A stretch of DNA of 64,000 nt from Octopus sinensis. Its lineage: Eukaryota. A program made the position numbers and the translations under genes. The DNA lies in NCBI RefSeq assembly GCF_006345805.1, contig NC_043014.1, forward strand, positions 49,166,001 through 49,230,000. Direction: 5' to 3'. The stretch's first letter is position 1. Every line of letters starts with the position of its first letter. Below, in pieces: positions 6,098 to 60,660 of the stretch. Below the pieces are notes generated by a model, which saw nothing but the letters and a program-made list of their open reading frames with translations, ran no database searches and was not told the origin of the DNA.

Positions 6098-6148
6098 ATG
6101 GCTGAAGAAATGCAGAAAATAACTGGGGAAATGCAGGAAATTCTACTG
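6098..6148 (+). CDS. Putative first coding exon of TPR gene, unit 1 (MAEEMQKITGEMQEILL)
   Basis: ATG in context GGAATGG, 17 open codons, canonical donor CTG|GTGAGT in phase 0, matching the phase-0 acceptor at 14680. Confidence 0.7.
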
Positions 6149-6187
6149 GTGAGTATATCAATACATACACTCGCTTGAACAAATGTA

Positions 6188-6528
6188 CACTCTTTACTCT
6201 CTCTTTTACTTGTTTCAGTCATTTGACTGCGGCCATGCTGGAGCACCGCCTTTAATCGAGCAACTCGACCCCGGGACTTATTCTTTTGTAAGCCCAGTAC
6301 TTATTCTATCGGTCTCTTTTGCCGAACCGCTAGGTAACGGGGACATCGGTTGTCATGCACACACACTCAAACATATACATATATACGACGGGCTTCTTTC
6401 AGTTTCCGTCTACCAAATCACAAGGCTATAGTAGAAGACACTTGCCCAAGATGCCATGCAGTGGGACTGAACCCGGAGCCATGTGGTTGGTAAGCATGCT
6501 ACTTACCACACAGCCACTCCAGCGCCTA
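6188..6528 (-). mobile_element. tRNA-derived SINE in intron 1
   Basis: Same family. Copies at ~42459-42797, ~48078-48417, and a split copy at 53183-54322. Confidence 0.85.
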
Positions 6529-6540
6529 TATATATATATA

Positions 6541-58009: not shown

Positions 58010-58374
58010 CGCGTGTGTGTATGTGTGTGTGAGAGAGTGTTATATCATATTATATTACATAATATAAGTGATCTGCAACAGCCTGTCCATCATATTGTTG
58101 TTGTTGATGATGATGATGATGATGATGCATTTATCACTCTGTCAAACACACCCCTTACATTGTTCTCTCACGTATTTACGCTCAGTTTTCTGTGCGTATA
58201 TTCAAAACATCGAACATTCGAATCCAAAATGCTCAGCCACTACATCAACCGTATCAGACTAGGAAGGTTTGACATTGTTTCATTAACTAAAAATCGAAAA
58301 TTGGAGAATATCTTTTTGTCAATGATAATGTGTGATATCATATTTCATACGCAATCATTTTGTTTTTATTTCAG

Positions 58375-59856
58375 GATGAAGGAAGTAGAAGAGAATCGTA
58401 TAGGGAGAGAATTAAAAGATTTCCAAATGTAATGGAAGAAAGTTTTGAGAAAACCAAAGAAGTTTGGTCGTCTCTCTACAAAAAAGTAGAAAATTCGTTG
58501 AATGATGATATCTTATTTGGTTTAGAAGATGAGATTCGTCAAAAGAACGTCCTAGTATATATTCTGTGGCAGATGAACGATAAATTTTCAGCTGAAAAAT
58601 TAGCCAATGAAGTTCGAGAAAAGAAGCCAGATAACCTGGTGGCATTAACCAACCTTGCATTCATTCATTTGTACGATGGAAATATCCCTGAGGTAAGAAA
58701 CCTTTTGGATAATCTAAGCAAGCTTGAAGAAAGAGAAAATTTCTCGCTGATAGAAGCAGAAGGCAAAAGAAATGTTGCTTATTGTTTAGCTACTATATCT
58801 TTTGAAGATCATGAAAGAGCTGTCGAACTTTACAAAGAGTCTCTCAACGTTTGTCCAGACGATTATCTGTGTATGTTTTCTATTGCTTTGTTGCAATATC
58901 GTTGTTTAAGAAAGAACATAGATAAAGAGAAAAGATGTGAAAATATTAAGGAATCAATACAGTACTTAGAGAAAATACGATGTGCTTTTCCACGCCATAT
59001 TGATAAGGGCCTAATGGGAAGAACATTAGCATTGATTGGTTTGTTTCAACTTAGTCCTTATAATTTTCATAGTCAACCAGCTAAAAAGTATTTTCAGAGA
59101 GCTCTTCATATTTCCCCTGATGACCGCTATGTTTTGGAGAAAAGTGCCTATCATTATATACGTTCAAATCAGCTTGAACAAGGAAGAAAATTGCTTGAAA
59201 AAGCAATTGAAATAAAAGCAACATCATATTCTCATCATCGGCTTGGATTACTTTATCTAAGAATGGATACACCAAAATATACATATGTCCCAATGAACAA
59301 ACAATTCTCAAAAGAAACGAATGTATTTGCGAAAGTTTTAAAACATGCTCAAAGTATTCCTCATAGAGAAAGGAATGAGTTAATCAACAAAGCTGAATAT
59401 CACTTTCAACAAGCTCTTGAACTTTCTCATGAATGTTCAGCTACTCTCTATGATATCATTTTATTATATATGTCTTTGAAAGAATATGACAATGCCAGGA
59501 AGTATTGTGAAAGATTTAAAGCAGATAACAAAATGCAAGATGTTAATTTTAACATTTTGTTTGGAAAATTATGTTTTAAAGAAGCAGATGTAAAAAATGA
59601 TGAAGAAGAAAAAGATCAATTAAGATGTACAGGAATGGATTGGTTTGTTCTGGCTCTTAAATCTGCTGTAAAATTTCTTCCTTTCGACAAAGACCTGATA
59701 GAAATTTGGGAGATAAAGGAAATAATACTTGATTTATATGAGTATGGAAATGGAAATACTGAATACAAAAAATTTGTTTTGGAATTCATTCAGTCAGTAG
59801 AAGACCTTGCCAATGACAAAGCGTTCCAAAATATACTTCACAAGAGTGAATTATAA
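58375..59856 (+). CDS. IFIT/TTC22-like TPR protein, main exon, copy 3 (intact ORF)
   Basis: Acceptor TTTCAG|GAT, 493 codons, same TPR architecture, about 60 aa different from copy 2 (manual count). Confidence 0.88.
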   Translation, partial: DEGSRRESYRERIKRFPNVMEESFEKTKEVWSSLYKKVENSLNDDILFGLEDEIRQKNVLVYILWQMNDKFSAEKLANEVREKKPDNLVALTNLAFIHLYDGNIPEVRNLLDNLSKLEERENFSLIEAEGKRNVAYCLATISFEDHERAVELYKESLNVCPDDYLCMFSIALLQYRCLRKNIDKEKRCENIKESIQYLEKIRCAFPRHIDKGLMGRTLALIGLFQLSPYNFHSQPAKKYFQRALHISPDDRYVLEKSAYHYIRSNQLEQGRKLLEKAIEIKATSYSHHRLGLLYLRMDTPKYTYVPMNKQFSKETNVFAKVLKHAQSIPHRERNELINKAEYHFQQALELSHECSATLYDIILLYMSLKEYDNARKYCERFKADNKMQDVNFNILFGKLCFKEADVKNDEEEKDQLRCTGMDWFVLALKSAVKFLPFDKDLIEIWEIKEIILDLYEYGNGNTEYKKFVLEFIQSVEDLANDKAFQNILHKSEL

Positions 59857-60145
59857 AAGATAAATTGTGTTCATACTTTTCTTATTACTTTCTTTATTGA
59901 TAATACTCAACAATATTTTGAAATTCATTGTTATATATCTCACGTTTTCTGAAGTAATACCAAACACGTTTATCTAAAGCTAAATTTTAAAAATCATATA
60001 AATTTAGACTACTCCTTTCTTTGAAACACAAGATGAATGTAGCAAAGAATTCTACAGGAAATATTACTGCCTTTGTAATGGATGTGGCCCTGAAACCAAC
60101 GTTGAAATGACGTCAGAGCATTCAAAGGATGACGTCATAACTAAC

Positions 60146-60660
60146 TTTCATTTTGACATATCTTAACATCCCCAAACAGTGAAGAAGTGGCAGAAAATAT
60201 TGGAATGAATCTAGAGATATACTTTTGCTTGAAAGTTCCATTTGATAATCGTGACTACATATTGGGATGATGTAAAACTGGAAACCTTTGCATTATACTG
60301 AAACATCGTTGGAATATTGGAATTCTATAAGTAACAACAAAAAATTACTAATTTACACAAAAGACACCAAGTAAATCCTTGAAGATTGACAACCTAAATA
60401 AGGACGATATTTTACTATCAGGAAGCATGAAGCCAGAAATTCCAAAACATTTAAAAAGTTTTCCTCAATTTAAATGGCAATGTGGAGAGAGAGAGAGAGA
60501 GAGAGAGAGAGAGAGAGAGAGAGAGAGAGGGGGGGGGGAGGGGGAGAGAGAGTGAGAAGAGAGAGAGAGAGAGGAGGGGGAGAGAGAGAGTGAGAGAGAG
60601 AGAAAGAGAGAGAGAGAGAGATGAATAGTTTTAGTTTCCTTTGCAGACTATATTAGTTCG
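60146..60660 (+). pseudogene. Degenerate TIR domain downstream of TPR copy 3
   Basis: In frame: LTSPNSEEVAENIGMNLEIYFCLKVPFDNRDYILG*; later EIPKHLKSFPQFKW. Confidence 0.65.

Follow-up and report, generated by a model that had tools for sequence, protein, structure and literature searches.

Vertebrate IFITs are described in the relevant parts of PMC13197388 and PMC12737575. The corresponding sections of PMC3688568 present them as having arisen with jawed vertebrates and interferon, restrict them to jawed vertebrates (matches in lancelet, acorn worm and lamprey being excluded) and give their gene layout as a first exon of ATG plus 2 nt behind ISRE promoters. For molluscs, the oyster genome paper (PMC4346834) names a 'TIR-TPR' class, which may be the family treated here, and PMC9334734 names it too; the relevant parts of these two papers draw no link between that class and IFITs. 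Interferon-like pathways in molluscs are also noted in the pertinent section of PMC6723221. Among the matches listed in searches of the open-access full-text literature, neither Octopus IFIT-like genes nor a link between IFITs and TPR-TIR proteins was found. A comparative survey of bivalve TIR proteins may list the TPR-TIR family. The genes analysed here are not IFIT orthologues; they form a group specific to Octopus that descends from an old TPR-TIR family related to IFITs and has lost the TIR.

The window, a 64,000-nucleotide stretch at G000:C18:49166001-49230000 of the Octopus sinensis genome, contains three TPR exons on the forward strand, each with a TTTCAG acceptor and 94-97% identical to one another, at 14680-16163 (unit 1), 30932-32413 (unit 2) and 58375-59856 (unit 3). 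An earlier note on this DNA had counted three exons of 493 codons; this holds for units 2 and 3, which are open throughout, but in unit 1 a 4-nt deletion near 15300, either a genuine lesion or an assembly error, shifts the frame into a stop at 15315 and leaves a product of 228 aa including exon 1. Database protein P0002 is the exact join of 53093-53143 with 58375-59856, and P0001 corresponds to the 474 aa of the unit 2 exon counted from an internal Met. The note had also seen the start of a fourth unit after unit 3, but 61977-64000 belongs to unit 3 as its 3' flank, and a search of the next 30 kb found neither exon 1 nor exon 2 again. The array instead extends upstream, where there are four additional copies; the nearest of these has its exon 3.3 kb outside the window and its 3' flank at 37-3296 (forward strand). 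The array thus comprises seven copies in about 117 kb, unit 3 being the last, and two further copies lie 1.5 Mb away. Four of the nine short copies in this assembly are intact and five are broken (28 candidates scored), and some single-base losses in the broken copies could be assembly errors. NCBI automatically labels these genes 'IFIT5-like' already. One upstream unit (L020, G000:C18:49138270-49138418) has a first exon shortened to 10 codons, and its database model, P0003, splices from exon 2 into decayed linker. Upstream of the array, at G000:C18:~49.089 Mb (L030), a frame ends in a mitochondrial-carrier-like peptide, and the cluster of P0001 contains carnitine/acylcarnitine carriers together with an O. 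vulgaris model of 699 aa, which probably reflects neighbours annotated as one gene.

The first coding exon comprises 17 codons, ends in phase 0 and has a GTGAGT donor, as seen on the forward strand at 6098-6148 (unit 1) and 53093-53143 (unit 3). Its presence in units 1 and 3 had been reported correctly, but there are four copies in all, two extra ones of the GEMQEILL type lying upstream of unit 3 at 42369-42419 and 47988-48038 on the same strand. In database gene models, two exon-1 types are joined to the unit 3 exon: the GKMQEILQ type at 53093 in isoform X1 (P0002) and the type represented at 47988-48038 in isoform X2 (P0333). No first-exon copy was found between units 1 and 2, leaving unit 2 without an exon 1 of its own. 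A 356-bp repeat occurs at 5424-5779, 10141-11239, 25346-27479, 41696-42052, 47314-47669 and 52033-52776, and bounds an exon-1-plus-LINE cassette at either end; at 25346-27479, six tandem copies stand in the place of the exon 1 and LINE of other units. Recombination between 356-bp copies would explain why exon 1 has been lost from unit 2 and is present three times ahead of the unit 3 TPR exon. The LINE of intron 1 (endonuclease, RT and zf-RVT; minus strand, 6527-10142) was duplicated together with the units, with a second full copy at 48417-52034 (minus strand) and partial copies at 42798-45325 and 54323-54889. A different LINE fragment on the minus strand at 53212-54256, comprising an RT C-terminus and an (AAT)22 tail and presumably CR1/L2-like by motif, is inserted 70 nt past exon 1 in unit 3 only.

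Ten nucleotides before the exon 1 ATG, an acceptor-like CAG follows a pyrimidine-rich stretch (6058-6097 and equivalents), which suggests an unannotated non-coding exon further upstream. The ISRE-like motif GAAANNGAAA was not found in the 1 kb that precedes exon 1 at 53093; the nearest match lies at a LINE end 1.06 kb upstream, a distance measured from the coding exon and not from a transcription start. An apparent ISRE enrichment (37 matches versus 7 expected) was rejected, as the matches recur at equivalent places of the duplicated units and none is proximal.

The IFIT-like TPR homology proposed in the earlier note is borne out by profile and Foldseek searches, in which IFIT1 and IFIT5 are the best natural matches. 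Searched singly, a window protein matches IFIT5 weakly (1.3e-4 over residues 87-403), behind consensus TPRs and CDC27, and a longer Octopus protein, P0014 (LOC115221491), has IFIT5 as its top match (1.4e-8). Family profiles are collinear with IFIT1 and IFIT5 over nearly their full length (E 1e-38 to 1e-46; IFIT1 residues 7-473 at 6e-46), and only engineered consensus TPRs outrank these two, the best natural PDB matches. Reciprocally, P0002 reaches 55 bits against positions 32-374 of an IFIT profile, and one of 41 non-IFIT TPR proteins (P0174, 68 bits) lies above the window proteins. The 510-aa product of unit 3 is predicted (pLDDT 93) to adopt an IFIT1/IFIT5-like fold; among the Foldseek matches listed, the first 13 are all IFIT1 or IFIT5 (E 9e-11 to 1e-9, TM 0.51-0.59), followed by OGT (2e-7). 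In a wide structural search, IFIT1 (Z 19.5) is tied with APC/C TPRs (Z 19.2) for the short form and clearly ahead (20.4 versus 14.7) for the long form. A generic housekeeping TPR protein was rejected as the best match, IFIT1 and IFIT5 leading the natural matches of both profiles and model despite the score of P0174. By language-model features, the short form has chordate neighbours, in clusters that mostly bear the name IFIT or TTC22, and the long form has TPR(-TIR) clusters of molluscs and echinoderms.

The same contig also carries five longer paralogues at other sites, and the frames of four are open for 751-795 codons. Intact genes combining the IFIT fold with a TIR are found at G000:C18:52.70-52.76 Mb (L015-L017; three of 741 aa) and at G000:C18:0.53-0.56 Mb (L013, L014), where a frame of 795 codons lies next to a frameshifted one. 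The model of P0014 (pLDDT 88.8) ends in a C-terminal five-strand alpha/beta domain that matches the TIR of IL-18Rbeta (Z 14.2, rmsd 2.2, 127 aligned) as well as those of TRIF, SARM1 and MyD88, and a profile built from 20 family tails finds a TLR TIR as its best match (4e-11), TLR/IL-1R types being closest. Pfam TIR_2 matches 10 of these 20 tails at E up to 0.5 but not the tail of P0014 itself, and a Pfam TIR search was negative for both P0012 and P0014; the TIR identity of the P0014 tail therefore comes from the family profile and the fold match, not from Pfam. In a check for the conserved catalytic Glu that TIR NADases of the SARM1 and plant type have in helix alphaC, Glu occupies any one alphaC column in at most 18 of 77 family TIRs, and P0014 carries E683.

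In each window unit, the DNA behind the stop aligns with P0014 residues 519-726 at 75% DNA identity, and its protein identity to the C-terminal ~205 residues of P0014 is 45-50%. These forward-strand relics lie at 16164-16785 in unit 1 (TIR part from about 16452), 32414-33037 in unit 2 (with 8 frame-breaking indels; TIR part starting at about 32703) and 59857-60480 in unit 3 (TIR part from about 60146, ended by a GA microsatellite). A decayed TIR directly after the stop had been described; the relic is real, but about 87 codons of decayed linker intervene. The truncating change is Ser TCA>TAA, and about 225 C-terminal residues, the TIR among them, have been lost relative to the long form. Compared with a long paralogue, the tail has gained 8 frame-breaking indels in about 600 nt, whereas over 1476 nt of TPR exon the indels are all net in-frame and dN/dS is 0.56-0.58. 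As O. bimaculoides has an intact 510-aa orthologue with the same end point, the truncation apparently predates the split from that species. A reading of the window copies as a receptor cluster is not supported, as they have no TIR left for signalling; true receptors are better sought among the long TPR-TIR paralogues.

Homology searches gave 198 relatives at E up to 0.001; names were sought for 26 among the best 150 of these and include scallop, snails, mussel, amphioxus, two acorn worms, sea urchin, lamprey and one fish IFIT. A tree of 24 rows (LG+G4, unrooted, with long branches and without TTC22) divides (99/97) into one side holding vertebrate IFITs, Saccoglossus and sea urchin and another holding Octopus, other molluscs, amphioxus, Glandiceps and lamprey, and a quick mixture-model tree recovers the same main split. 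Within an Octopus clade (100/100), the long forms have the short ones as their sister group (98/98), and the short forms thereby nest in the TPR-TIR subfamily. The descent from a TPR-TIR ancestor proposed in the earlier note is supported by the alignment of the tail to P0014, the TIR fold of P0014 and this nesting, and the lineage-specific expansion is Octopus-specific by homologue searches, array copies and tree. Placement of the Octopus copies within a vertebrate IFIT clade is rejected (p-AU 0.002 for all Octopus copies, 2.5e-5 for the short forms alone), which tells against IFIT membership in the strict sense. A Saccoglossus kowalevskii protein (P0104/P0359) reaches 160 bits with a profile of vertebrate IFITs, with which it also groups in the tree (95/92); no TIR was detected in it, and it is a possible invertebrate IFIT orthologue. 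Lampreys have an 839-aa member of the TPR-TIR subfamily (P0143/P0350), the tail of which falls below the TIR profile threshold, and a 625-aa sea urchin protein with a clear TIR (P0145) forms a long branch on the IFIT side of the tree.

To compare the RNA channels, the IFIT5 contact sites given in the relevant parts of PMC9677429, including Table 5, were mapped by alignment, the tenrec IFIT5 numbering being reproduced at 16/16 sites. According to the same source, a Q41/K150/R253 triple mutant of IFIT5 binds about 150-fold more weakly. The window copies keep the equivalents of R186, Y250, H287 (H/R) and, in most copies, Q288 (Q/R), and have lost those of Q41 (S), K150 (T), R253 (E) and R260 (I). 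They have also lost K257 (N/Y), which we take to be a contact site. Alignment A2, with 88 non-Octopus rows that are mostly invertebrate and include a few vertebrate or unrelated ones, has Arg or Lys, counting the five commonest letters, in at least 75/88 rows at K150, 81/88 at R186, 54/88 at Y254, 61/88 at K257 and 72/88 at R260, and His in 74/88 at H287; the Q41 and R253 sites are not conserved. The wider TPR-TIR family therefore keeps basic channel residues, whereas the window copies are without three of them (the K150, K257 and R260 equivalents). A canonical 5'-ppp pocket is not supported, with S, T and E at the Q41, K150 and R253 equivalents, and given the replaced channel residues and a net acidic charge (-6 and -8), a canonical 5'-ppp clamp appears unlikely in the short forms. 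It would be more plausible in the long Octopus forms, which have Arg at the K150 site and retain Lys at the R260 site.

Across the seven array copies, variable columns are concentrated in the exon (131/1397, versus 45/1162 in the upstream intron, 22/617 in the relic and 11/907 downstream), so that copies differ 2.4-8 times more in the exon than in the flanks (p 1e-17 when columns are treated as independent). Similarly, in the three intact long paralogues 51/1386 columns vary in the TPR part, versus 6/786 in linker plus TIR and 15/944 and 8/1200 in the flanks. Equivalents of the IFIT5 RNA-contact sites vary more often across eight copies than other sites (9/16 versus 122/477, p 0.017), in a post hoc test for which the alignments had been seen beforehand and in which the copies share history. 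Positive selection was not detected, overall or in five regions: pN/pS is 1.11-1.35, not significantly above 1 (p 0.23-0.65), and such values would arise under relaxed selection too. As synonymous sites are elevated in the exons as well, patchy gene conversion could add to exon diversity. On the simplest reading of the pattern, the flanks evolve in concert, divergent ligand-binding exons are retained, and copies turn over by birth and death.

The chief rival reading, which we consider unlikely but the strongest of the alternatives, holds that the short copies form a redundant array drifting into pseudogenes under relaxed selection, with only the long TPR-TIR paralogues acting as sensors. A pN/pS of about 1, five of nine copies broken, the lack of a first exon in unit 2, several O. 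vulgaris database proteins that are also truncated or internally deleted, and the loss of family-conserved basic residues are all consistent with it. However, the TPR frame has stayed open while its own tail gained 8 frame-breaking indels, the O. bimaculoides orthologue is intact at 510 aa, and greater divergence in exons than in flanks is not predicted by neutral decay; moreover, pN is about equal to pS in the TPR part of the intact long paralogues also.

If the short proteins do function, they might instead regulate the long TPR-TIR receptors by pairing with them or competing for ligand, so that signalling is damped or tuned, in the way that IFIT3 tunes IFIT1. Direct descent from the long form, with the TIR gone and the basic channel partly lost, would suit such a role, as would the heteromers formed among vertebrate IFITs (relevant parts of PMC12737575), but hypervariable channel-lining sites would not be needed to regulate a host protein, and we regard this as rather improbable. 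Least probable, in our estimate, is that the copies are non-immune TPR scaffolds or host-RNA binders of the TTC22 type, multiplied as a by-product of repeat-driven duplication. LINE and 356-bp repeats are indeed abundant in the units, and TTC22 clusters score as high (0.96-0.97) as IFIT clusters in the language-model search; yet the ancestor carried a TIR nearest to TLR/IL-1R types, and the long paralogues combine a variable TPR part with a nearly fixed TIR, the pattern that the TLR and NLR families would lead one to expect of an immune receptor.

We therefore give about an even chance to the array encoding TIR-less IFIT-fold proteins, derived from an Octopus TPR-TIR gene, that serve as diversifying immune binders; we infer the immune function from ancestry and diversity. 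On this best reading, the short proteins are non-signalling binders whose IFIT architecture was reached independently. The ancestral TPR-TIR protein would have sensed RNA ends through a basic channel and signalled through a scaffold TIR. The short proteins would keep a foreign ligand bound in the IFIT-type channel but send no signal, probably with weaker binding or with a ligand other than 5'-ppp RNA following the loss of the K150, K257 and R260 equivalents, and might sequester that ligand or serve as decoys. The flanks would be homogenised and the first exons shuffled by unequal crossing-over, to which the 356-bp repeats probably contribute, and divergent exon variants would be maintained by selection.

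More broadly, these relationships point to IFIT-type proteins being older than vertebrates. We tentatively suggest, as an idea that is possible but on balance doubtful, that IFITs are one TIR-less branch of ancient bilaterian cytosolic RNA-end sensors, combining an IFIT channel with a TIR, that persist in molluscs, echinoderms, acorn worms, amphioxus and probably lamprey, and that Octopus independently replayed the step from sensor to stand-alone effector with its channel in an arms race, the remains of the TIR being legible to this day in the 3' region. If true, a class of pattern-recognition receptor not recognised so far would be defined, and the view that IFITs arose with jawed vertebrates would be overturned. 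The present data link IFITs to a widespread invertebrate TPR-TIR family that keeps basic RNA-channel residues. The role of IFIT ancestors and the identity of a sensor of viral RNA ends in molluscs now become testable, and the Octopus locus offers matched long (TIR) and short (TIR-less) forms within one genome.

The Octopus copies thus resemble IFIT1 and IFIT5 in full-length collinearity, predicted fold and similar size, in their tandem, lineage-specific cluster, and in having a tiny first coding exon followed by one large exon, the exon 1/2 junction falling, by extrapolation, at about IFIT1 residue 2. They differ in that the first exon has 17 codons in phase 0, versus ATG plus 2 nt in vertebrate IFITs (PMC3688568), and in that a TIR relic lies behind the stop and a proximal ISRE was not found, whereas vertebrate IFITs have ISRE promoters. 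TTC22, compared by feature score alone, is level with the IFIT clusters. The direct ancestor type is represented by the invertebrate TPR-TIR proteins, among them the long Octopus form P0014 and relatives in scallop, snails, amphioxus, acorn worm and, beyond invertebrates, lamprey; the short copies are 51-55% identical to the long Octopus form, with the same acceptor position, and fall in the same clade.
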